From contig CAZHQU010000001.1 of NCBI GenBank assembly GCA_964534245.1, forward strand, positions 1-37,364: a stretch of DNA of 37,364 nt, read 5' to 3'. Numbering within the stretch: the first letter of the stretch is position 1; each line of letters starts with the position of its first letter. The DNA is from an uncultured Coprobacillus sp. GTDB lineage: Bacteria; Bacillota_I; Bacilli_A; ML615J-28; CAG-698. Below, piece by piece: positions 1,973-13,121 of the stretch. Below the pieces are notes generated by a model, which worked only from the letters and a program-made list of their open reading frames with translations, was not told the DNA's origin and made no database searches. Position numbers and translations under genes: made by a program.

Positions 1973-4351
1973 TTATGCTCTTAAAACACCATTATGATTC
2001 TTTTCAATTAGTTTTAAGATTTTATTAACTTTACTATTGATAACTTCATCAGTTAATGTTTCATTTGATGTGAATACAATCTTGAATGCTAAAGATTTTT
2101 CATCTTCATTAATCTTGTCCCCTACATACAAGTCAAAGATCTTAACATCACTAATTAACTTTTTATCTACACTATAAATAGTATTAACGATATCACCACT
2201 GAATACATCTTTCTTAACTACGATTGCTAAGTCACGTTCTACAGATGGTACTTTAGATACTGGTACATAGTGTTTGATTGCTTTTTCTTCTCTAATTAAT
2301 TCATGAATGTTTACTTCAGCAACATATACGTTTTGTAAGCTATTAGCTTGTGCATATTTTGGGTGTAACATTCCAATGAAACCTACAACTTTATTGTTGT
2401 ATGAAATCTTTGCTGTTCTTAATGGATGCATTTCTTCCATTGTAACATCAATTTTTTCGTATTTAGCTTCAACACCAATTGCTTGTAATGCTGTATTTAA
2501 TACACCTTTTAATGTGAAGAAGTCAACTGCTTCAACTTTGCCTTGCCATAGAGTTGATGATAGAAGACCTGACATTGCGATTGCTAAGTGTTCTTCTTCA
2601 ACATATTCTTCATTTACTTGATAGTATACTTTACCTACTTCGAAGAATGCAACGTTCTTTTGCTTTCTATTGAATACATAAGATACGTTTTCTAATAAGC
2701 TTGGTACTAAGTTTCTTCTTAAGACATTTCTTTCATTACTAATTGGCATTAATAATTTAATGTCTTCTGCATCTTTATCAAATAGATATGTAAATTCATT
2801 ATTGTTTTCTCTTAGTGATAAGTTAACTGATTCAGTTAAGCCTAATGTGATTAATGATTTACGCAATGCTTTTCTATTCTTTTGTGCTTTAGTAAGTTCT
2901 CCTGCTAAAGAGCTCTTTGGTAATGTTAATGGTAATTTTTCATAACCATAGATTCTACCAATTTCTTCAACCATATCGGCTTTAATAGAGATATCAGTTC
3001 TTCTTGTTGGAACTGTTATTACTAAGTCATCACTTATTTCAAATTTTAATCTTTTTACGATATTAATGATTTCTTCTTTTGAGATTTCTACACCTAAGTA
3101 TTTAGAAATATATTCTGGTGTAATTTGAATTTGTTTTTCAGCTGATTCACTATTTTTACAAACAGTTACGCCTTTAGAGATTTTAGCTTCGCATAATGTT
3201 TGATATAAATAACAAGTATAGTCTAAAGCAAGTTTTGTTCTTAATGGATCGATTCCTTTTTCGTATCTAATAGCTGCTTCACTTCTTAAGTCTAATCTCT
3301 TATAAGTGTCTCTAATTGATTGAGGATCAAAGATTGCGGCTTCGATTAAGATGTCTTTAGTGTTTTCATCAACTGATGTTCCTAAGCCACCCATTACCCC
3401 AGCAACAGCTACTGGTTTTACACCATCTGTAATAACGATATCAGTAGTTTCTAATACTCGTTTGTTGTTATCTAGTGTTATCATTTCTTCTTTATCGTAT
3501 GCATTTCTTACAACAATTGTATTTCCTAACTTATTGTAGTCAAATGCGTGTAATGGCTGCCCAAATAAAGCTAGAATGTAGTTTGTGATGTCAACTGCGT
3601 TATTAATCGGTCTGATTCCAAAAGCGATTAGACGCGAAATTAGCCAGTCTGGAGATTTCTTAATCTTAATGTCTTTGATAACTTTAGCATAGTATAAAGA
3701 ACATTTTTCAGTATCAAGTCTTAAATTGACATTATTGTCTTCTCCATCTTCTGTATAGCTATATTCTAAAGCTTTCATTTCACGTTCAAATACTGCACTT
3801 ACTTCATATGCTACACCTAACATACTTAAAAGGTCAGCTCTATTAGGAGTAAGTCCTAGTTCTAATACATCATCATTGAAGTATAACTTTTCTAAAGGAT
3901 TGTCTCCAGGTTTTACATCTTTCACAAAGTAGTAAATACCTTCAGCATATTCTTCTGGAACATACTTCTTTTCTAAACCTAATTCTTGTAATGAACAAAT
4001 CATGCCAAATGATTCAATACCACGAATCTTAGATTTCTTAATTTTAAAGTCACCAGGAAGTTCAGCACCAACTTTAGCAACAATAACATACATACCAGCT
4101 TTAATGTTAGGAGCACCACATACGATTTGTAATACTTCTTCTCCAACATCTACAGTACATACATGTAAGTGATCACTATCTGGATGATCTACACATGTTA
4201 ATACATGACCTATTACTAAGTTAGTTCCAAATAATACTTTTTCAACACCTTCAATTTCAGTTGAGTATAAACTTAATTTATTTACTATTTCTTCAGTAGT
4301 TAAACCACTAATATCTACTAATTCATTTAACCAATCTAATTTTACTTTCAT
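1973..4351 (-). CDS. pheT: phenylalanine--tRNA ligase beta subunit
   Basis: 792 aa. N-terminal MKVKLDWLNELVDI, tRNA-binding domain, B3/4 and B5 regions, C-terminal FDX-ACB-like domain. Directly follows pheS. Confidence 0.97.
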   Translation of the reverse strand: MKVKLDWLNELVDISGLTTEEIVNKLSLYSTEIEGVEKVLFGTNLVIGHVLTCVDHPDSDHLHVCTVDVGEEVLQIVCGAPNIKAGMYVIVAKVGAELPGDFKIKKSKIRGIESFGMICSLQELGLEKKYVPEEYAEGIYYFVKDVKPGDNPLEKLYFNDDVLELGLTPNRADLLSMLGVAYEVSAVFEREMKALEYSYTEDGEDNNVNLRLDTEKCSLYYAKVIKDIKIKKSPDWLISRLIAFGIRPINNAVDITNYILALFGQPLHAFDYNKLGNTIVVRNAYDKEEMITLDNNKRVLETTDIVITDGVKPVAVAGVMGGLGTSVDENTKDILIEAAIFDPQSIRDTYKRLDLRSEAAIRYEKGIDPLRTKLALDYTCYLYQTLCEAKISKGVTVCKNSESAEKQIQITPEYISKYLGVEISKEEIINIVKRLKFEISDDLVITVPTRRTDISIKADMVEEIGRIYGYEKLPLTLPKSSLAGELTKAQKNRKALRKSLITLGLTESVNLSLRENNNEFTYLFDKDAEDIKLLMPISNERNVLRRNLVPSLLENVSYVFNRKQKNVAFFEVGKVYYQVNEEYVEEEHLAIAMSGLLSSTLWQGKVEAVDFFTLKGVLNTALQAIGVEAKYEKIDVTMEEMHPLRTAKISYNNKVVGFIGMLHPKYAQANSLQNVYVAEVNIHELIREEKAIKHYVPVSKVPSVERDLAIVVKKDVFSGDIVNTIYSVDKKLISDVKIFDLYVGDKINEDEKSLAFKIVFTSNETLTDEVINSKVNKILKLIEKNHNGVLRA

Positions 4352-5404: not shown

Positions 5405-5690
5405 AAAAAATCCTTAAGACATAAAATCTTAAGGACGAAAAATCTAACTTTGCATCTCTAAAATATAGAGATTACATAAAGCGTACTTCCGCGGTACCAC
5501 CTTAATTCACATCATACTAAAATATAATTATAGTACATATGTGCACTTCATTCCTATTAACGCTAGGTAACGGACTCTATTAAAGCCACTCCACTAGTGA
5601 ATTCAATATATCTCTAATATCTATTTGCACCAAACATAGACTCTCTATAAATAGAAAATATATTTACTACTCCAATATCAACGTATTACA
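5405..5690 (-). promoter_or_regulatory. T-box riboswitch leader, Phe-specific (UUC specifier), controlling pheST
   Basis: All on the minus strand. T-box sequence AATTAAGGTGGTACCGCGG (core 5489-5501). AGAGA (5611-5615), then specifier loop GAA-UUC-A with UUC at 5599-5601. Terminator CCTTAAGA/TCTTAAGG (5411-5436) plus T6 (5405-5410). Confidence 0.9.
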
Positions 5691-5694
5691 ATAT

Positions 5695-5723
5695 ATTATA
5701 CTACTTTTTTATAAATCTTTCAA
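5695..5723 (-). promoter_or_regulatory. sigma-A-type promoter of the pheST T-box leader
   Basis: Minus strand TTGAAA (5718-5723), 17 nt, TATAAT (5695-5700). Confidence 0.75.
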
Positions 5724-5752
5724 GTCTAATTTAATAAAGACTAATTTAATAA

Positions 5753-6709
5753 TTATTCTTCATGTTTATTAATTATTACTTTTTTAATTTTTAAATAGTT
5801 TTTTTCTGTTAAATATGCATCATTTAATTTTTCTTTCTTATACGTTAGAACAGTATTCTTAGTTAAGTTTATTAACAAATCTGTAAAATATCTTTCACAA
5901 CTAAAGTATTTTTGACTATCAATATAGTTATATGGGTGTTTAATTTTATCACTATTTCCAAATGTATTTACAACTCCACTATTTAAAATTATCCATTCAA
6001 ATGACTCTGGAGCATAGATAATTGTTTCGCCTGTTTCCCCAATATATGAATATAACGGATTAATAAATGAACCAAACGCTGCCCCATCAACAACTATAAT
6101 ATTTTTTTGATCTTTATTGATTGCTTTTATAATATTAGAATTGCCACTAGATGAATAACAATTAATTTTGTATTCATTGGCTAGTTTATTAAAATATTCA
6201 AACCCAGAAGATGAATCTTCAGTAATTATATTATTATAATTATTTAAATGAATTTCATTTATTAAACCAGTTTTGTATTTATTAACAGCAATATTTTTTG
6301 TTTTAGTTTTTGTAAATGAACTTTGAAATTCAAGTATAGAATTTATACTATATGGTAGATTAATTAGATTGTCTCTAGTTATTAATACAAAATAATTATT
6401 TGCATTTTTAACAGCATTTGCAAAATCCACACTATTCAAAAATGAATTCCCTTCATCACAAAAAACTATACTATTATCAATATTGATTAACTCTTTCATC
6501 CAGTTTTTTCCTTCTATTACTTCACAAGGAACTTTACATTTTATTTCAACTCCACTACTTTTACCTTCACGATTATAATCATTTATCATATTGATAAGAG
6601 TCGATTTTCCTGTGCCACTATTTCCACGAATAATAGTTATATTTCTTTCAACAATCAACTCAAAAGATATACGTTTATTAGATACTTTTATACTATACTT
6701 CCCTTTCAT
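5753..6709 (-). CDS. compact P-loop NTPase with Toprim/DUF4435-like C-terminal region (function unknown)
   Basis: Walker A GNSGTGKST (nt 6599-6625) and Walker B IVFCDEG about 45 aa later. C-terminal IITEDSSSG...IIVVDGAAFG...YAPESFEWIIL. AGGAG SD 6716-6720 overlaps the stop of the upstream gene. Confidence 0.85.
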   Translation of the reverse strand: MKGKYSIKVSNKRISFELIVERNITIIRGNSGTGKSTLINMINDYNREGKSSGVEIKCKVPCEVIEGKNWMKELINIDNSIVFCDEGNSFLNSVDFANAVKNANNYFVLITRDNLINLPYSINSILEFQSSFTKTKTKNIAVNKYKTGLINEIHLNNYNNIITEDSSSGFEYFNKLANEYKINCYSSSGNSNIIKAINKDQKNIIVVDGAAFGSFINPLYSYIGETGETIIYAPESFEWIILNSGVVNTFGNSDKIKHPYNYIDSQKYFSCERYFTDLLINLTKNTVLTYKKEKLNDAYLTEKNYLKIKKVIINKHEE

Positions 6710-6718
6710 AGTTTACTC

Positions 6719-7156
6719 CTAAACAAATTCATGGGCTTCTAATATAAGTTCATCCATATTATTCACTAACTTATTAGTATTTAAAATTAATATAGGATTT
6801 TTAAAATCACCAAAATTCATAATATATCGTAAATTAATTGTTAAATCTTTTTTTTCAGCAATTTCCAAGATAAATTTTGCACAGTTGTCTCCACACGTTG
6901 TAGCATTAAATATTTTATTTTTATCATTTTTCATTAATAATAAAGTCTTTACGCCACCAGATAATTTTTCAGGAGAAATCGGTCCTAAAAATGGACTATC
7001 AATTAAATTTTCACTTATTACATCTGATTTATCTATTTCTTTAATAATCTTTTTACCAAAGCTACTTACTATCCATTTTTGATTATATGTATTATTAAAA
7101 TAAATGCTTGTATTAAACACTACATCATCCATATTTCCAAAAAATATTTTAAGCAT
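6719..7156 (-). CDS. small protein with ABC-signature-like LSGG motif but no P-loop. I recall this type being annotated as a DUF4869-type family; unverified.
   Basis: 145 aa. SPEKLSGGVKTLLLM then IFNATTCGDNCAKFILEIAEKKDLTINL. AGAGGTG SD 7164-7170. 9-nt gap to the downstream NTPase gene. Confidence 0.8.
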   Translation of the reverse strand: MLKIFFGNMDDVVFNTSIYFNNTYNQKWIVSSFGKKIIKEIDKSDVISENLIDSPFLGPISPEKLSGGVKTLLLMKNDKNKIFNATTCGDNCAKFILEIAEKKDLTINLRYIMNFGDFKNPILILNTNKLVNNMDELILEAHEFV

Positions 7157-7177
7157 ATAGATTCACCTCTAATTACT

Positions 7178-7206
7178 ATTATACTATATATTTTACTTAT
7201 TTTCAA
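7178..7206 (-). promoter_or_regulatory. sigma-A-type promoter of the two-gene NTPase module
   Basis: Minus strand TTGAAA (7201-7206), 17 nt, TATAAT (7178-7183). Confidence 0.7.
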
Positions 7207-7256: not shown

Positions 7257-8588
7257 TTATATAAATAAAATCATATAATGAGGTATTGTTTGTTTTACTC
7301 CAACTTTTCCATTTCTCCCATTAATTAGTTTATATGCAATATCTGGGTTATAATCATCAATATAATTATTCAAAGATATTGTTGAGGAATTGCTAGCTTT
7401 TACTTCGACGGGAATTACTTTCCCATTCTTTTCTATTAAAAACTCTATTTCATGATCATTATCTGGCTTATAATAATATAAATTATACCCTCGTTTAATC
7501 AAACATTCAGAAATTACATTTTCATATATTCCGCCTTTAGCGTTGCCCTTAATACTATCATTTAATACTGCTAATTTTGTTTCAAACCCATACATAGCGC
7601 ATAATAACCCAGTATCATTTATGTATAATTTGAATTGATCATCATAAGCATTTGCCATTAATGGCAAATATGGTTGATGAACATTATAACATGCATTTAC
7701 AATTTCAGAATCTTTCAACCATTGTATACTGCCACCAAACTTTCTTCGAGTTTGTCCTTTTTCAACTGTTGAATACTGAAATTTCTTTAACTCCTTTACA
7801 AGTTGTTTAGGTATAGCATCATAACACATTCTTACTAATTGTTTTTCTTTACCCTTTGCATGTTTTGAAATATCATCTTTGTATTCAGCTAATATATCAT
7901 TTTGAATTTTATCGACCCTTGAAAAATTTTTGTGTAATATGAAATCATTAACAACTTCAGGCATTCCCCCAACAACAATAAATTCCCTAAATAATTCAAT
8001 ATATTTTTTATGTATTACTTCAGGGATTTGCTCTCCTCTTTCAAAATAATCTTTTAATATGTTTATGGCATTACAATCATATCCATTTGCCCAAAGAAAT
8101 TCCTCAAAATCTAATGAATACATCTTAATTTGAGTTTCATACCCTACTGGTACTAACTCAGGAATCTCCACAGATTCATCATCATCTTCACCATAAGTAA
8201 GGCCCATTAAAGATCCTGATGTGATTACATCAAACCTCATATCTTCAGCTAAGAATTTAATTGATGTTCTTGCGTTACCACATCTTTGTATTTCATCTAA
8301 AAATATCAAAGTATTCCCTTCAATTAATTTAAAATCTTTTATATAAGCAGATATTCTTTTTAAAATCTCTACAGAACTTAAATCACCATCAAATATAGCT
8401 TTTAACTCTGGTTGTTTAAAGAAATCTATATATATAAATGATTCATATTCATTCATTCCAAATTCTTTTATAATATATGATTTACCAACTTGACGAGCTC
8501 CTTTTATTAAAAGACATTTTTTAAACTGTTCTTCTCTTCTTTGTTTTTTCCATTCTAACAATTTATCATACATCTTTCTTTTTAGCAT
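7257..8588 (-). CDS. AAA-type ATPase with DUF4143-type C-terminal PD-(D/E)xK-like domain (COG1373-type)
   Basis: 443 aa. Walker A GARQVGKS, Walker B LIFLDEIQ, C-terminal DHEIEFLIE...IPVEVKAS nuclease-fold-like motif. AGAGGTGA SD. Confidence 0.9.
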   Translation of the reverse strand: MLKRKMYDKLLEWKKQRREEQFKKCLLIKGARQVGKSYIIKEFGMNEYESFIYIDFFKQPELKAIFDGDLSSVEILKRISAYIKDFKLIEGNTLIFLDEIQRCGNARTSIKFLAEDMRFDVITSGSLMGLTYGEDDDESVEIPELVPVGYETQIKMYSLDFEEFLWANGYDCNAINILKDYFERGEQIPEVIHKKYIELFREFIVVGGMPEVVNDFILHKNFSRVDKIQNDILAEYKDDISKHAKGKEKQLVRMCYDAIPKQLVKELKKFQYSTVEKGQTRRKFGGSIQWLKDSEIVNACYNVHQPYLPLMANAYDDQFKLYINDTGLLCAMYGFETKLAVLNDSIKGNAKGGIYENVISECLIKRGYNLYYYKPDNDHEIEFLIEKNGKVIPVEVKASNSSTISLNNYIDDYNPDIAYKLINGRNGKVGVKQTIPHYMILFI

Positions 8589-8729: not shown

Positions 8730-9689
8730 TTATTTAATTGTTCCTGTTAAATTTTTCAGATAGTTTTTTATTTCTTTACTAATTATATTATACTCGTAAT
8801 CGTGGACATAGTGTGGACAGTCTAGTCGAACGACTTTTACTTGATCTAAAGCATTTGCATACATCAAAGTAGCATCTGTAAGTTTTATTGTTGAGGTATC
8901 GCTTGAAATAAATAATAGCATTGGAACACTTGGAATTTCTCCTGCTTCAACAATCTTTGCGTTCTCACTAACATACTTTAGTTCATTCATAATTGTTCTA
9001 TTACTAAAATTTTTATATAGTAATGCATGAACAATTTCTTTTTCTTTCTCTGTAAGAGTTCCGTATTTTACACAATCTAGTTCATTTAGCAAAGGTAATA
9101 ACCTAATTATACCTACCTTCGCATTAAATTGACTAACTACATTCATAAACACATTATTTTTGAAGTTTTCATATGCTGCTGGTACAGCCATATCTAATCC
9201 AATTATAGCTTCAACTTCATTTGGATACTTTTGTGCCCAGTATAATGCTTCAAGTCCTGACATAGAATGAGGACATAAAACATATGGTCCCTCTATATCT
9301 ACTAAAGCTAAAGCTGCTCTAGTTTCGCTTAATACTGTATCTATATCTCTTGGATTATCCACAACATCACTGAAACCATAACCGAATCTTTCAACAACTA
9401 CAATTCTATATTCATCAGTGAGCAAAGAGAATAATGATTTAAAGTCAAGTATAGGAGATGGAGTATCAGAACCAGACAAAAATACAATAGTTTTATCTCC
9501 AGTTCCTTCTATATAAACGCTCATATTATTTCCATTCACTTCCACAAGCTCTCCCAATGGAGTTCTTAGTGGTTCTTCGGTTATTAATTTAATATGATGA
9601 AATAATACTAATGTTAGCAATATGGTAAAAGTAATAATTAATTCTATTATAGTTTTCTTGGTCTTATTTTTGTTCTTATTATTTTTCAT
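8730..9689 (-). CDS. membrane-anchored alpha/beta hydrolase
   Basis: N-terminal Lys-rich segment plus TM helix (IIELIITFTILLTLVLF). HSMSG nucleophile elbow and C-terminal CPHYVH. The track start 9707 is GTG; ATG 9689 with AAGGA upstream is preferred, but either is possible. Confidence 0.85.
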   Translation of the reverse strand: MKNNKNKNKTKKTIIELIITFTILLTLVLFHHIKLITEEPLRTPLGELVEVNGNNMSVYIEGTGDKTIVFLSGSDTPSPILDFKSLFSLLTDEYRIVVVERFGYGFSDVVDNPRDIDTVLSETRAALALVDIEGPYVLCPHSMSGLEALYWAQKYPNEVEAIIGLDMAVPAAYENFKNNVFMNVVSQFNAKVGIIRLLPLLNELDCVKYGTLTEKEKEIVHALLYKNFSNRTIMNELKYVSENAKIVEAGEIPSVPMLLFISSDTSTIKLTDATLMYANALDQVKVVRLDCPHYVHDYEYNIISKEIKNYLKNLTGTIK

Positions 9690-9711
9690 ATTTTTATGTC
9701 CTTTCACGTCG

Positions 9712-10533
9712 TTACTCTTTATTAGAATTTTTTCTTACATAAATATATTGAATATATAGTATAACTATATTTATTATAGCGCTAACTAAATATCCAAGTT
9801 TATATAAATTAAACACAGTACTATCTTTAATTGCAATGGTTTGAATTAACCCGCAAGTCACATTAATTACAATAGATACAATAAGTGCTATTATCTGCAT
9901 TAGTTCAAGTTTACTTAGTTTTTTTATGCCTTGTTTTTTTCTAATGTTTGTTTGATATAAAAACATACAGAAGTTACATATTGATATTATAAAGAATTCA
10001 ATAAGTAATGTTAATGTATCTACCGCAGCAGTTAGCATTAACAGTGAATTTATAAATATACTTAACCCAAATACTAATATGAATAATGAAACATACTTTA
10101 ATTCTACTTGATAATAAATTAAATTATAGAACTTAGTTTCATAGAAATTTTTAAAAGTAATAAAACTATATATAAATAAACATATACTAATTACAAACAA
10201 AACTACTGATAACCATATTGGTAATAAATGTATTGTTAAACCTAAAAGTGAACATATTACTAAAGATATAACTATTTTTGCTTTGTATCTTCCAATAAGA
10301 TTCCAATCTATTTGATTATTATTTAGTAGTTTGGCATTTGTTTCTCCATATAACTCTTCTATTGTTACTTCTAACGCTTTAGCAAGTTCTGGAATTATAC
10401 TTGTATCAGGAAGCTGCGTGCCCACTTCCCATCTTGAAACAGTTTTGTCTGAAACATTTAACTTTTCAGCAAGGTCTCTTTGTGTTAGTTTTAAATCTTT
10501 TCTTCTTTGAATAATAATTTTTGAAAAATCCAT
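9712..10533 (-). CDS. XRE-family HTH regulator fused to a multi-pass membrane domain
   Basis: MDFSKIIIQRRKDLKLTQRDLAEKLNVSDKTVSRWE (HTH_3) followed by about 6 hydrophobic helices. Start moved to ATG 10533 because GGAGG (10542-10546) lies 8 nt upstream. Confidence 0.85.
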   Translation of the reverse strand: MDFSKIIIQRRKDLKLTQRDLAEKLNVSDKTVSRWEVGTQLPDTSIIPELAKALEVTIEELYGETNAKLLNNNQIDWNLIGRYKAKIVISLVICSLLGLTIHLLPIWLSVVLFVISICLFIYSFITFKNFYETKFYNLIYYQVELKYVSLFILVFGLSIFINSLLMLTAAVDTLTLLIEFFIISICNFCMFLYQTNIRKKQGIKKLSKLELMQIIALIVSIVINVTCGLIQTIAIKDSTVFNLYKLGYLVSAIINIVILYIQYIYVRKNSNKE

Positions 10534-10567
10534 AATATTAACCTCCATAATGGTCTCATTATACATT

Positions 10568-10595
10568 ATTATAACATTTAAATACACATCGTCAA
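10568..10595 (-). promoter_or_regulatory. sigma-A-type promoter of the XRE-hydrolase operon
   Basis: Minus strand TTGACG (10590-10595), 16 nt, TATAAT (10568-10573) preceded by TGT (extended -10). Confidence 0.6.
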
Positions 10596-10625
10596 TATTG
10601 AATTTTCTCCCAAGTTTTGAGATTT

Positions 10626-10657
10626 AAAAAATAGGTCCTTTTGAGACCTATTTTTTT
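10626..10657 (-). terminator. bidirectional-looking rho-independent terminator after the 809-aa lipoprotein gene
   Basis: ATAGGTC (10631-10637) / GACCTAT (10645-10651) stem with a 7-nt loop, flanked by A run 10626-10630 and T run 10652-10657. Confidence 0.75.
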
Positions 10658-10700
10658 ATTTTGTCTTTTATTTTGTCTTTTATTTTGTCTTTTATTTTGT
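10657..10700. repeat. 12-bp tandem repeat TATTTTGTCTTT x about 3.7, overlapping the lipoprotein stop codon
   Basis: Units at 10657-10668, 10669-10680, 10681-10692, and partial 10693-10700. On the coding strand each unit reads AAG ACA AAA TAA. Confidence 0.9.
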
Positions 10701-13121
10701 ATAGAAAGATTCAAACTCAGATTTTATTTCTTCATAAACTGATTTAAATTCTTCATCGTAATCATTTCCTTTATAGAAAGTATTAATAGCGGGATCCTTC
10801 AATAAAGATGCGCCAGATACTTCTCTTAATCTTCTTAATGGCTCATGTATAAGTGGTAAATCATAAAAGTATAATACTGCTTCTGTTGAATTATTATCAG
10901 CATATTTATTATTTAATTCTTCTTTTAAGGAATCTTTTACTTCATCTTCAGAAATATATTTTTTTGTTAAACTTAATGTTTCTTGCATTATGTACCATAT
11001 ATTTTTTTGAGCATCTTTTGCTATTTCTTCTGGATAATTTCGACCATTAGGATAAACATATATCATTTGTGAATCATTATAAATTCTAGTTTCTTCTTTA
11101 GTCAAATCATCTGGATAAGGGAATGGAACATAACCAAATTCAGTAATTCCTTCTCCCCACATATCATCTTGCCATCTACCATTATTATTAACAAACCATT
11201 GATAACCTGGTACCATTAATGTGCCACCTTCATCTGCCTTAAAAAATGAATTTGGAACATCATTCCATTCAGCCCATGTTACATTTGTATTAACCGCGCC
11301 TTTTTCAGTTAAGCCATAAATTAAAGATGCGGCTGCTTTTGATCTATCATTAATTATATTAACTTCTAAAGTCTTAATATTTGCAACACTTTCATCTGCA
11401 GCTGCAGTCATTCCCAAATAGTAGTAATATGGATGCCCACCTAATACATATTCATTTTCACCTAGTTTTTCTTGAACATCTAATACCCAATTAGTAAAAC
11501 CTGTGTAGTTCCATTTTCCTTCATTGAAAAGTTTTGCTGGAGATTCTACTCCTAGTTCTTTAAGCCATCCATAATTATAGAACAATCCATTAGTATTATC
11601 TAATTCATATAAATATTTGTATGGCTCTGCATTTGACGCATATATTTTATTATTATATGTTACAAGATCTTTATCATATACTGACATTAAATCAAGATGA
11701 TAATTATCATAATACTCAGTTAAATCTTTTATTACTCCCTCATCAGCCAAATCAGAAATCACAAAGTTACTAAAGTATGCAATATCACAGGCTACTCTTC
11801 CATTTTCATATTCATATTTTAATGTTACTGAGTATGGATCAAAAGTTGCTGAAGCACTAGATTCTTTAACTACAATATCGCAGTTATATTTTGATTCTAC
11901 TTCTGTCCATGCTTTTTGTTTTGCTAAGCGATCAGGATTTGAATAATTATCTAAAAATGGATCGACATTATCAAAAGAATTATATGGTACCATTATTACT
12001 ATTTGATATCCATTTAAGGAAGAAATACTTAATGGTTCAGGTTCATTTAGTATTTCAACAGTATAATATTCTGATTTTACATCAGGATAATGTTTGCTTA
12101 CTGCTCTTACTTTTATATTTCCTTTCTCTAAAGCCTTAATTTTACCATTTTCTGTTATTATTGCTTTAGAGTTAGATGATGAATGTAATTCCCATATAAC
12201 TTCATTTATAGCATCTGTAGGGTATATAATAACTCCTAATTCTTTTTCATATCCAACATACATTGTTTCATTCTTAACTGATGGATTAACTACGATTTTA
12301 TTAGGTTTTATTAACTCAAACTTAGCATATAAAGTTATATTATCTTTTACATTTTCTTTAAAATCATATAAGTTTATATATTTATCATCCTTATACCAAC
12401 CTACAAAAGTATATCCTTCTCTCACTGGAGTATTAGGTTCTGTTAATACTTGATTATATTCATAATCTACTTCAACTTTTGAATCATCATTTCCTAAATC
12501 ATCAATGATAAATGTAACTTTATATTTATTAATTTCCCATTTAGGTTCTAATAATAGATCTTCATAAATAGGTGCATCAAAATTGAAAAGTTCATTATTT
12601 AAGTACCATCCAGTAAATGTATACCCTTCTTTATCTAGGTCATTTGGTTTTAATGCTTTTTCACCATACTTTAACTCTATATTACTATCACCAAACGTAA
12701 TAACTAAAGTTTTAATATCACTACACTTACATACACCTTCAACATATTCATGAATATGTTCTTTATATAATGCTTTAATAGTTAAGTCACATGTAACATT
12801 ACTAAAGTCTTCACTCCATCCAGTAAAATCATATCCCTCTCTTATTGGATTTTCTGGAGCATTAGCGCTTTTGTTCTCCAAAACTTTTTCTTCTTTTATG
12901 ACTGATTCATCATAATCAACAAACTTTACAGTGTACTCAACTTCAATTGTTTTACCGCACTCACATCTTCCTTCATCAAACGTACAGTCATGAACTTCAT
13001 TACATAGTAAACATTTACCATCTCTAAACTCATGTTCACATTCATTACATCCAGTTAATATAAACATAGTTAATATTAACATAGAAATTATGATTAATGT
13101 AAAGTATCCAAATCTTTTCAT
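10692..13121 (-). CDS. surface lipoprotein: Flg_new (Listeria-Bacteroides) repeats, His/Cys knuckles, Big_2 domain, C-terminal solute-binding-protein-like domain
   Basis: Lipobox ILTGC (Cys25). Three GY(T/D)F(T/V)GW repeat units. The Big_2-like segment KELGVIIYPTDAINEVIW...KALEKGNIKVRAVS. The C-terminal ~440 aa resembles sugar-type SBPs (tentative). AGGAG SD. Confidence 0.9.
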   Translation of the reverse strand: MKRFGYFTLIIISMLILTMFILTGCNECEHEFRDGKCLLCNEVHDCTFDEGRCECGKTIEVEYTVKFVDYDESVIKEEKVLENKSANAPENPIREGYDFTGWSEDFSNVTCDLTIKALYKEHIHEYVEGVCKCSDIKTLVITFGDSNIELKYGEKALKPNDLDKEGYTFTGWYLNNELFNFDAPIYEDLLLEPKWEINKYKVTFIIDDLGNDDSKVEVDYEYNQVLTEPNTPVREGYTFVGWYKDDKYINLYDFKENVKDNITLYAKFELIKPNKIVVNPSVKNETMYVGYEKELGVIIYPTDAINEVIWELHSSSNSKAIITENGKIKALEKGNIKVRAVSKHYPDVKSEYYTVEILNEPEPLSISSLNGYQIVIMVPYNSFDNVDPFLDNYSNPDRLAKQKAWTEVESKYNCDIVVKESSASATFDPYSVTLKYEYENGRVACDIAYFSNFVISDLADEGVIKDLTEYYDNYHLDLMSVYDKDLVTYNNKIYASNAEPYKYLYELDNTNGLFYNYGWLKELGVESPAKLFNEGKWNYTGFTNWVLDVQEKLGENEYVLGGHPYYYYLGMTAAADESVANIKTLEVNIINDRSKAAASLIYGLTEKGAVNTNVTWAEWNDVPNSFFKADEGGTLMVPGYQWFVNNNGRWQDDMWGEGITEFGYVPFPYPDDLTKEETRIYNDSQMIYVYPNGRNYPEEIAKDAQKNIWYIMQETLSLTKKYISEDEVKDSLKEELNNKYADNNSTEAVLYFYDLPLIHEPLRRLREVSGASLLKDPAINTFYKGNDYDEEFKSVYEEIKSEFESFYTK

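Follow-up and report, generated by a model that had tools for sequence, protein, structure and literature searches.

A mobile two-gene cassette of gut bacteria pairs a P-loop-less ABC-like protein (DUF4869) with a compact ABC-type NTPase: a candidate OLD-like defence module

Among the major themes of bacterial immunity are modules that combine an ATP-binding cassette (ABC) ATPase with a nuclease, such as OLD, Gabija, PARIS, Septu, Lamassu and Wadjet. The way in which ATP binding gates the nuclease in such modules is still being worked out. The gene pair described here lies in a 37,364-nucleotide (nt) stretch of DNA from an uncultured Coprobacillus sp. (GenBank assembly GCA_964534245.1, contig CAZHQU010000001.1, positions 1 to 37,364), which is called the window below. 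The first gene encodes a small protein of the Pfam family DUF4869 and the second a larger nucleoside triphosphatase (NTPase; Table 1). We give an even chance to the reading that the pair is an undescribed, OLD-like, autonomous and horizontally mobile two-gene cassette, that its subunits form an ABC machine with one composite ATP site, and that its likely role is in defence.

The two genes are inherited together. Two surveys cover them: 80 loci, each of a different species, with the NTPase as seed, and reciprocally 80 metagenome loci with DUF4869 as seed. A DUF4869 gene adjoins the NTPase gene in 79 of the 80 species loci (77 upstream, 2 downstream) and the sole exception ends at a contig edge. 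Reciprocally, the NTPase follows DUF4869 in 73 of the 80 loci and two more end at a contig edge. The distance between stop and start over 139 complete pairs has a mode of 9 nt, about nine in ten ranging from -4 to +16 nt. The two proteins also evolve together. Their distance matrices correlate with r = 0.82, against a maximum of 0.07 in 500 permutations, and all catalytic-type motifs are invariant or nearly so across 126 unique pairs, from which the conservation counts given below are drawn. The co-conservation on which an original prediction, made from the letters of this stretch alone, had depended is borne out by these counts.

The small protein is a full-length member of DUF4869 (PF16163; E 2.4e-56; 189.5 bits, the gathering cut-off being 28.9; positions 1-126 of the 128 in the model), a family that already exists in Pfam with neither function nor fold assigned. 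The wider DUF4869 superfamily comprises 1,999 clusters at 50% identity. The literature searched holds no mention of DUF4869 or PF16163, nor of an ABC-like nature, an NTPase partner or an operon for the family; an earlier computational mention may exist. The AlphaFold2 model, built on 32 homologues, has a predicted local distance difference test score (pLDDT) of 94.7. All of its top 50 Foldseek matches in the PDB are ABC transporter nucleotide-binding domains (NBDs), CFTR NBD1, PtuA of Septu or an SMC head; individually they are weak (E 5e-3 to 7e-2, template-modelling (TM) score 0.25-0.41) yet unanimous. Profile-profile alignment (hhalign) with a reference of 30 ABC transporter NBDs taken from the surveyed loci spans 88 columns from residue 55 to residue 143 (E 2.9e-4) and brings all motifs into register. 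LSGG falls on LSGGQ, k-I-F-N-A-S on the Walker B strand (illlDE), C-G-D90-N on the D-loop (SALD) and T-I-N-L-R-H on the H-loop, and both terminal strands align too.

These motifs are under strong conservation in the family. S66, G67, G68 and K70 are kept in 124-126 of the 126 homologues, the signature being followed in the model by a helix (residues 67-77), and F83, N84, C88, G89, N91 and C92 are invariant. The D-E pair of Walker B is replaced by N84-A85, and the aligned F83-N84-A85-(S/T)86 is invariant or nearly so. Position 111 is His in 124/126 homologues and Tyr in 2/126, the window copy having Tyr. A Walker A motif (GxxxxGK[ST]) was found neither in the 145-residue sequence nor in the DUF4869 consensus, where the N-terminal strand ends at the invariant G7. 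The DUF4869 protein is a whole, minimal, P-loop-less pseudo-ABC core and not a fragment. The motifs that it keeps, signature and D-loop, are those that act across the ABC dimer interface (their roles are summarised in PMC7049728). It had been described as a signature-only mini-protein, which does not fit a full-length family member with a complete core; the accompanying view of it as the signature, Walker B strand, D-loop and H-loop half of an ABC head, devoid of the acidic pair, agrees with both the alignment and the fold matches. The D-loop region also contains an invariant C-x-x-x-C (residues 88 and 92; window 6881-6895), and the NTPase has two near-invariant cysteines, C62 and C184; a metal or redox site is conceivable.

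The NTPase has 708 detectable homologues of about 320 residues, none with a full-length Pfam family. Scans with Pfam, NCBIfam, PADLOC and PHROGs returned only P-loop-level matches for it, and searches of PDB sequences with the profiles of the NTPase, its C-terminal domain and DUF4869 gave nothing beyond the P-loop. A few homologues carry precomputed P-loop-type matches (AAA_22, nSTAND3). Some (P0050, P0057) are named 'translation initiation factor 2' by NCBI, a label that looks misplaced and seems to have spread, as an erroneous annotation, from a P-loop match.

The AlphaFold2 model of the NTPase has a pLDDT of 92 and a predicted TM score of 0.89. Residues 1-145 begin with a β-hairpin (strands 5-10 and 14-20), a strand (24-28), the P-loop (G29 to K35) and a helix. 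They continue with two short strands, a helix, the strand of I-V-F-C-D85-E86, helices, the strand of T111-R112 and a second β-hairpin. As modelled, this order is that of an ABC core minus the helical lobe and the signature motif. The ABC-type nature of this N-terminus, already proposed from its motifs, is supported by hhalign over the first hairpin and Walker A, with E 4e-9 against transporter NBDs and E 2.9e-6 against defence ATPases of the PtuA/RloA type. The top local fold matches are the ATPase domains of MutS and MutS2 (probability 0.99-1.0), followed by OLD, the effectors of retrons Eco8 and Ec78, and PtuA. IVFxDE pairs locally with the Walker B of the PtuA/RloA type at a sub-significant level (E 0.089). 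Walker A and Walker B are indeed close together, although Lys35 and Asp85 are about 50 residues apart and not about 45 as first stated. The stretch of about 45 residues between the two motifs holds no SGG-like signature, under either of the two domain mappings considered here. The H-loop-type strand ends in an Arg in place of the switch His, and this R112 is invariant (126/126).

The motifs are split in a complementary manner between the two subunits, and a head-to-tail heterodimer is the simplest model. The NTPase would supply the motifs for its own bound ATP (Walker A, Walker B and the switch Arg) as well as the presumed effector, a Toprim-like α/β domain with a helical tail that is most likely a metal-dependent nuclease. 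DUF4869 would supply the motifs acting in trans, namely the LSGG signature, the D-loop and, at the level of the family, the H-loop His. A single ATP would then lie between the P-loop of the NTPase and the LSGG of DUF4869, and its binding or hydrolysis at this one composite site would gate the effector domain, much as the nucleases of the OLD family and of Septu are under the control of ATP. Judged by the analogy of OLD, Gabija, PARIS and Septu, the cassette would probably serve in defence against phages or other mobile DNA, possibly through abortive infection. A bolder proposal, which we regard as possible but doubtful, is that the pair is an obligate one-site ABC engine of a new kind, with cis motifs on one subunit and trans motifs on the other controlling a fused nuclease, DUF4869 being perhaps a portable regulator or sensor.

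A natural fusion of 271 residues occurs on eight contigs (L185-L188; 5001-5816 in L185; proteins P0249/P0510). In it, a 14-residue linker separates DUF4869 from residues 1-113 of the NTPase, with D-N-Q at Walker B and no C-terminal domain thereafter. The fusion may be a derived form, for example a decoy, or a decaying one. Its gene sits amid many small open reading frames (ORFs), with an AbiEii gene nearby.

Three of the five exceptions in the reciprocal survey carry a complete Septu in place of the NTPase gene, directly after an intact DUF4869 gene (PtuA E 4e-120 to 1.5e-127; PtuB E 1e-34 to 4e-50). These loci are 95-98% identical in nucleotide sequence to ordinary loci, and the homology ends exactly at the DUF4869 stop and resumes just past the replaced gene or genes. 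In the remaining two exceptions, the position is taken by an AAA_5 ATPase or a REase-ARP nuclease. The replacement by Septu shows that a known defence module made of an ABC ATPase plus a nuclease can stand in the place of the NTPase. Since an intact DUF4869 copy is kept directly upstream of PtuAB, the protein may be portable and serve other ABC ATPase/nuclease modules; at the Septu loci it either works with Septu or was simply left behind.

The persistence of an intact DUF4869 beside Septu, where its own NTPase is missing, would also suit a toxin-antitoxin-like arrangement. DUF4869 would then be a decoy half-dimer that caps the NTPase head, blocks its self-association and thereby holds the effector inactive; an infection, or the loss of this labile small protein, would free an active, toxic NTPase. 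Many antitoxin-toxin operons share the arrangement seen here, a small leading gene translationally coupled to the next, yet the order is reversed in 2 of the 80 loci. DUF4869 is more conserved than the NTPase (mean distance 0.41 versus 0.51) and has lost all catalytic residues; what it keeps invariant, however, is LSGG and the D-loop, which are exactly the ATP contacts across a dimer and which a steric cap need not retain. Moreover, the NTPase has no signature of its own, so that the homodimer to be blocked would be without a canonical closed ATP site. We consider this arrangement unlikely and keep the head-to-tail heterodimer as the preferred reading.

The C-terminal half of the NTPase carries the presumed effector. 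Its α/β domain of four β-α units has three groups of invariant residues: E164-D165 after β1, D208-G-A-A after β3, and P234-E235-S236-F-E238-W239 after β4. The acidic order Glu, Asp, SxE parallels the Toprim ligands of OLD (E, DxD, (S/T/D)xE). In the OLD protein of Thermus scotoductus the metal ligands are E377, D431 and D433 for site A, and D381, S478 and E480 for site B (PMC7049728). For metal B, where the comparison is by motif order only, two invariant triplets have the form SxE, namely S236-F-E238 and S270-W-E272, and D165 stands at E+1 and not at E+4. K292 of the helical tail may act like the Lys of the helical domain of class 2 OLD proteins (PMC7049728). The only long co-linear fold alignments of the NTPase are with OLD-family nucleases: 6p74 (E 3.4e-3, 283 columns, TM score 0.17), a Catovirus OLD (E 2.5e-4, 300 columns, TM score 0.17) and the retron Eco8 effector (E 1.4e-2). 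Topology, motif order and these weak fold matches make a Toprim-like, putative metal-dependent nuclease the most likely identity of this part of the protein, unproven as it is.

Several observations weigh against the preferred reading. The OLD fold matches, obtained with the whole NTPase as query, are weak (TM score about 0.17, probability 0.35-0.66), and the canonical DxD reads D-G-A, the second Asp being absent in 126/126 homologues. The Toprim assignment failed every sequence-based test (Pfam, PDB sequences, PHROGs, and profiles of RloB and P2 Old). Scans of the C-terminal domain alone, with 14 family members and E-values up to 10, found no Toprim, DUF4435 or RloB, and the NTPase matched no OLD, AAA_15/AAA_21, Toprim or DUF4435 model. 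The NTPase profile aligned with P2 Old over 24 residues, around Walker A only. Against RloB (PF13707) the C-terminal domain gave E 0.16-0.27 in hhalign, with only the first of the motifs CEGxxTE, DxD and SNxxFExW in register; the RloB reference was made of Pfam-verified proteins from the surveyed loci and is a shallow profile (homologues all at least 74% identical). The Toprim/DUF4435 tail of the original prediction is thus not established. Moreover, the H-loop His of DUF4869 is conserved even though the protein is not expected to bind an ATP of its own, which the model leaves unexplained. The window copy is atypical at near-invariant positions, with T36S (1/126), K190N (6/126) and W271C (1/126) in the NTPase in addition to H111Y in the small protein (2/126). 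It may have drifted functionally, through relaxed constraint or a lineage-specific change. Most cassette neighbourhoods consist of ordinary housekeeping genes, so that any enrichment in defence islands appears modest. Class 1 OLD genes, for their part, are not found near other defence genes either (PMC10568477), which is why a loose association with islands says little against a role in defence. Finally, greedy hhalign alignment permits another parsing of the NTPase, which is taken up below.

Two further comparisons were set aside. The equivalence of PESFEW with NPCFExW of RloB was dropped because the profile-profile comparison is not significant, and profiles matched to single sequences (DUF4869 against PtuA, DUF4869 against the NTPase) were uninformative.

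In the other parsing, a full-size ABC core extends from residue 1 to about residue 215 of the NTPase, with IVFxDE as its Q-loop strand and IITED as its Walker B, and the helical C-terminus is a sensor or adaptor. The pair would then act as a switch dependent on NTP, with an unknown effector or one located elsewhere. The greedy alignment with transporter NBDs does place IITEDS on Walker B and ViADGAAfG on the terminal 'vl..G.i..G' strands, and the sequence tests gave no support for Toprim. However, the C-terminal domain aligned alone is unlike the C-terminal half of an ABC protein, and IVFxDE is a canonical hhhhDE that pairs locally with the true Walker B of PtuA and RloA. The predicted order of residues 81-143 (strand, helix, strand and β-hairpin) matches an ABC core; in residues 160-232, helices separate all successive strands, which sets this part apart from the terminal hairpin of ABC proteins. 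Furthermore, no conserved third gene is available as a possible effector: 126 immediate neighbours span 144 Pfam families, each present at most three times. A single full-size core was rejected as the main reading on the basis of the domain-wise hhalign and of the local alignment of Walker B, and a switch devoid of nuclease appears improbable.

The cassette is mobile. It is found in Lachnospiraceae, Oscillospiraceae, Negativicutes, Coriobacteriia and Treponema, and both families are present in hundreds of gut and rumen species. It also occurs on three megaplasmids (the copy on the R. albus plasmid lies near IS66 elements), on five unannotated faecal contigs labelled as phage and on six IMG/VR contigs. 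Some genomes carry two cassettes and some loci tandem cassettes, and such copies are just 42-60% identical. In loci L095 and L096 (3869-7054), a small gene and an NTPase gene are followed by a second small gene and a second NTPase split into two ORFs (42-59% identical). A segment of about 64 nt follows the NTPase stop in some loci (L116 64-127 and 4188-4251; L104 5429-5492). One of the two L116 copies comes after a truncated upstream cassette and the other after PtuB, and the segment may be a repeated cassette boundary.

Defence genes are present among the neighbours but do not dominate them; they include PglZ, specificity subunits of type I restriction-modification systems, GajB-like, AriA-like and mad genes. 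Directly upstream of the cassette, one human-gut lineage carries genes for an RloA-like ABC ATPase and for an RloB Toprim protein of the Pfam type. Neither protein of the pair gives a significant match in PADLOC-DB v2.0.0: DUF4869 matches no family and the best E-value of the NTPase is 0.0038 (mad8), the other marginal matches of the NTPase, in the P-loop region only, being PtuA (E 0.0052), AriA (E 0.034) and JetC. This agrees, as does the literature searched, with the earlier failure to place the pair in any named system. The variable neighbours, patchy spread, carriage on plasmids and viral contigs, paralogues, low GC content, Septu replacement, defence neighbours and the PADLOC candidate PDC-S01 next to the window copy (see below) all point to an accessory and probably defensive character. 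Alternatively, the pair might maintain the genomes of gut anaerobes as a small ATP-dependent enzyme that processes DNA in the manner of MutS2, RecF or SbcCD. In favour of this, the best local fold matches of the NTPase are MutS/MutS2 ATPase domains and many loci lie among ordinary chromosomal genes, as does the window copy between the rplQ and pheST operons. Patchiness across phyla, variable neighbours devoid of conserved synteny, divergent paralogues and tandem copies, plasmid and viral-contig carriage, strain-level replacement by Septu and a GC content below that of the flanks make such a housekeeping role quite improbable.

The gene directly upstream of the pair in the window (7257-8588, minus strand) encodes an ATPase with AAA_14 and DUF4143, the PADLOC candidate PDC-S01 (E 5e-144). 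In close relatives (L189-L193) this ATPase adjoins the pair as well, and in 3 of the 80 species loci (L069, L071 and L080) it is no more than a few kb away. The gene order in the close relatives is rplQ, DUF4143 ATPase, the pair and pheS. In the window, three extra genes are present between rplQ and the DUF4143 ATPase (8730-13121, minus strand), encoding an α/β-hydrolase, a helix-turn-helix (HTH) protein of the XRE type and a surface protein with Flg_new/Big_2 repeats. Because these accessory genes are absent from the close relatives, the interval from rplQ to pheS is a variable insertion site. The identity of these three genes led us to reject it as a dedicated defence island.

The layout of the window copy is that of a compact operon (Table 1). 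The two ORFs, their 9-nt gap from the TAG stop of the small gene (6719-6721) to the ATG of the NTPase gene (6707-6709), and the overlap of AGGAG with that stop were all correctly read in the original prediction. So were the peptide motifs LSGGVKTLLLM, IFNATTCGDN and DLTINL of the small protein, and GNSGTGKST, IVFCDEG, IITEDSSSG, IIVVDGAAFG and YAPESFEWIIL of the NTPase. The promoter assigned to the pair exists as a TTGAAA-17-TATAAT site but is not perfect: it is a consensus match at 11 of 12 positions. As a class, such sites are not enriched in this AT-rich region (30 found versus 30.2 expected from shuffled sequence). The four sites with 11-12 of 12 positions are all intergenic and upstream of genes. 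The site before the DUF4869 gene is plausible, judged from sequence, and weak on its own.

Downstream, the pair is bounded by the promoter and T-box leader of pheST. The leader of pheS (5474-5690, minus strand) scores 80 bits (E 7.5e-18), below the Rfam gathering score of 93, and its terminator lies at 5410-5436. The Rfam scan of the whole window at default gathering scores gave no RNA family, although ribosomal-protein operons are present. The GC content of the cassette is 22-26%, against about 30-35% for pheST. Flanking repeats of the kind that would mark a mobile element were sought around the cassette and only AT-rich low-complexity matches were found. A tandem 15-nt direct repeat (AAGTCTAATTTAATA / AAGACTAATTTAATA) at 5722-5751, directly 3' of the NTPase stop, overlaps the -35 element of the pheS-leader promoter.

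Table 1. Features of the gene pair in the window, and of related loci (L numbers; coordinates of the respective locus)
Feature	Position	Strand	Description and basis
DUF4869 gene	6719..7156	-	145 aa; P-loop-less pseudo-ABC nucleotide-binding domain; Pfam PF16163
ABC signature L65-S-G-G68, small protein	6953..6964	-	hhalign to LSGGQ
Degenerate Walker B strand and D-loop I82-F-N-A-T-T-C-G-D-N-C-A93, small protein	6878..6913	-	hhalign register
H-loop strand T106-I-N-L-R-Y111, small protein	6824..6841	-	hhalign register
NTPase gene	5753..6709	-	318 aa; minimal ABC-type ATPase core, α/β domain with acidic cluster, helical tail
ABC-type ATPase core, NTPase residues 1-145	6275..6709	-	secondary structure and hhalign
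Walker A G29-N-S-G-T-G-K35-S36, NTPase	6602..6625	-	G29, S31, G34 and K35 invariant (126/126)
Walker B I81-V-F-C-D85-E86, NTPase	6452..6469	-	F83 and E86 126/126, D85 125/126
T111-R112, NTPase	6374..6379	-	end of H-loop-type strand, Arg for switch His; position inferred from secondary-structure order
C-terminal α/β domain, NTPase residues 155-250	5960..6247	-	four β-α units; secondary structure and conservation
Helical tail, NTPase residues 251-318	5756..5959	-	invariant S270-W-E272..F275 and Y290-x-K292; W271 is Cys in window copy
Shine-Dalgarno AGGAG, NTPase gene	6716..6720	-	overlaps small-gene stop codon; translational coupling
Shine-Dalgarno-like AGAGGTG	7164..7170	-	7 nt 5' of DUF4869 ATG; read from sequence
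Promoter-like TTGAAA-17 nt-TATAAT	7178..7206	-	-35 at 7201-7206, -10 at 7178-7183; 22 nt upstream of DUF4869 ATG
Rare substitutions of the window copy	6824-6826 (H111Y), 6140-6142 (K190N), 5897-5899 (W271C), 6602-6604 (T36S)	-	
Septu PtuA and PtuB at NTPase position	L092 1163-3228; L101 4584-6606; L116 2160-4185		
RloA/RloB beside cassette	L107 1163-1915; L118-L124 ~2126-3900; L170/L171 6398-7150		small ATPase-nuclease cluster

If the preferred reading holds, the cassette would be a minimal natural dissection of the ATP switch, with heads of about 145 residues that carry the cis motifs on one polypeptide and the trans motifs on the other, and with that split, genetics could probe directly what the signature motif does. 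It would also offer a first functional hypothesis for DUF4869 and for a partner family of more than 700 homologues devoid of family assignment. Should the pair prove protective, it would add a system missed by current defence-finding tools in gut Clostridia.

The OLD family (class 1, with P2 Old and T. scotoductus OLD; class 2, with GajA of Gabija) shows the same succession of an N-terminal ABC-type ATPase, a C-terminal α/β domain with acidic motifs resembling metal ligands and a helical extension, and provides the best, if weak, full-length fold matches of the NTPase (6p74, the retron Eco8 effector and the Catovirus OLD). However, the NTPase has 318 residues against about 520-600 for OLD, lacks the dimerisation insert and the signature motif, has an Arg for the H-loop His and a DxD reduced to D-G-A. 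It is also accompanied by a separate DUF4869 partner, which no OLD class has. PARIS (AriA/AriB), RloA/RloB and Septu (PtuA/PtuB) are likewise two-gene cassettes of an ABC ATPase and a nuclease, and PtuA is a fold match of both DUF4869 and the NTPase. In these systems, the ABC ATPase is complete and the nuclease is the second protein. In the present pair, by contrast, one polypeptide carries both the ATPase and the putative nuclease, and its partner is ABC-like but catalytically dead. Asymmetric ABC dimers (TM287/288, CFTR NBD1/NBD2 and MutS heterodimers), which are among the fold matches, offer the closest mechanistic parallel, with two unequal heads and one catalytic composite site (ABC-dimer knowledge summarised in PMC7049728). 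In those dimers both protomers keep the P-loop and bind nucleotide, whereas here DUF4869 lacks the P-loop and the NTPase lacks the signature, so that labour would be divided completely between the two. The pair stays within the known theme of ABC ATPase plus nuclease, but with an active site that is unusually fully split between its two proteins.

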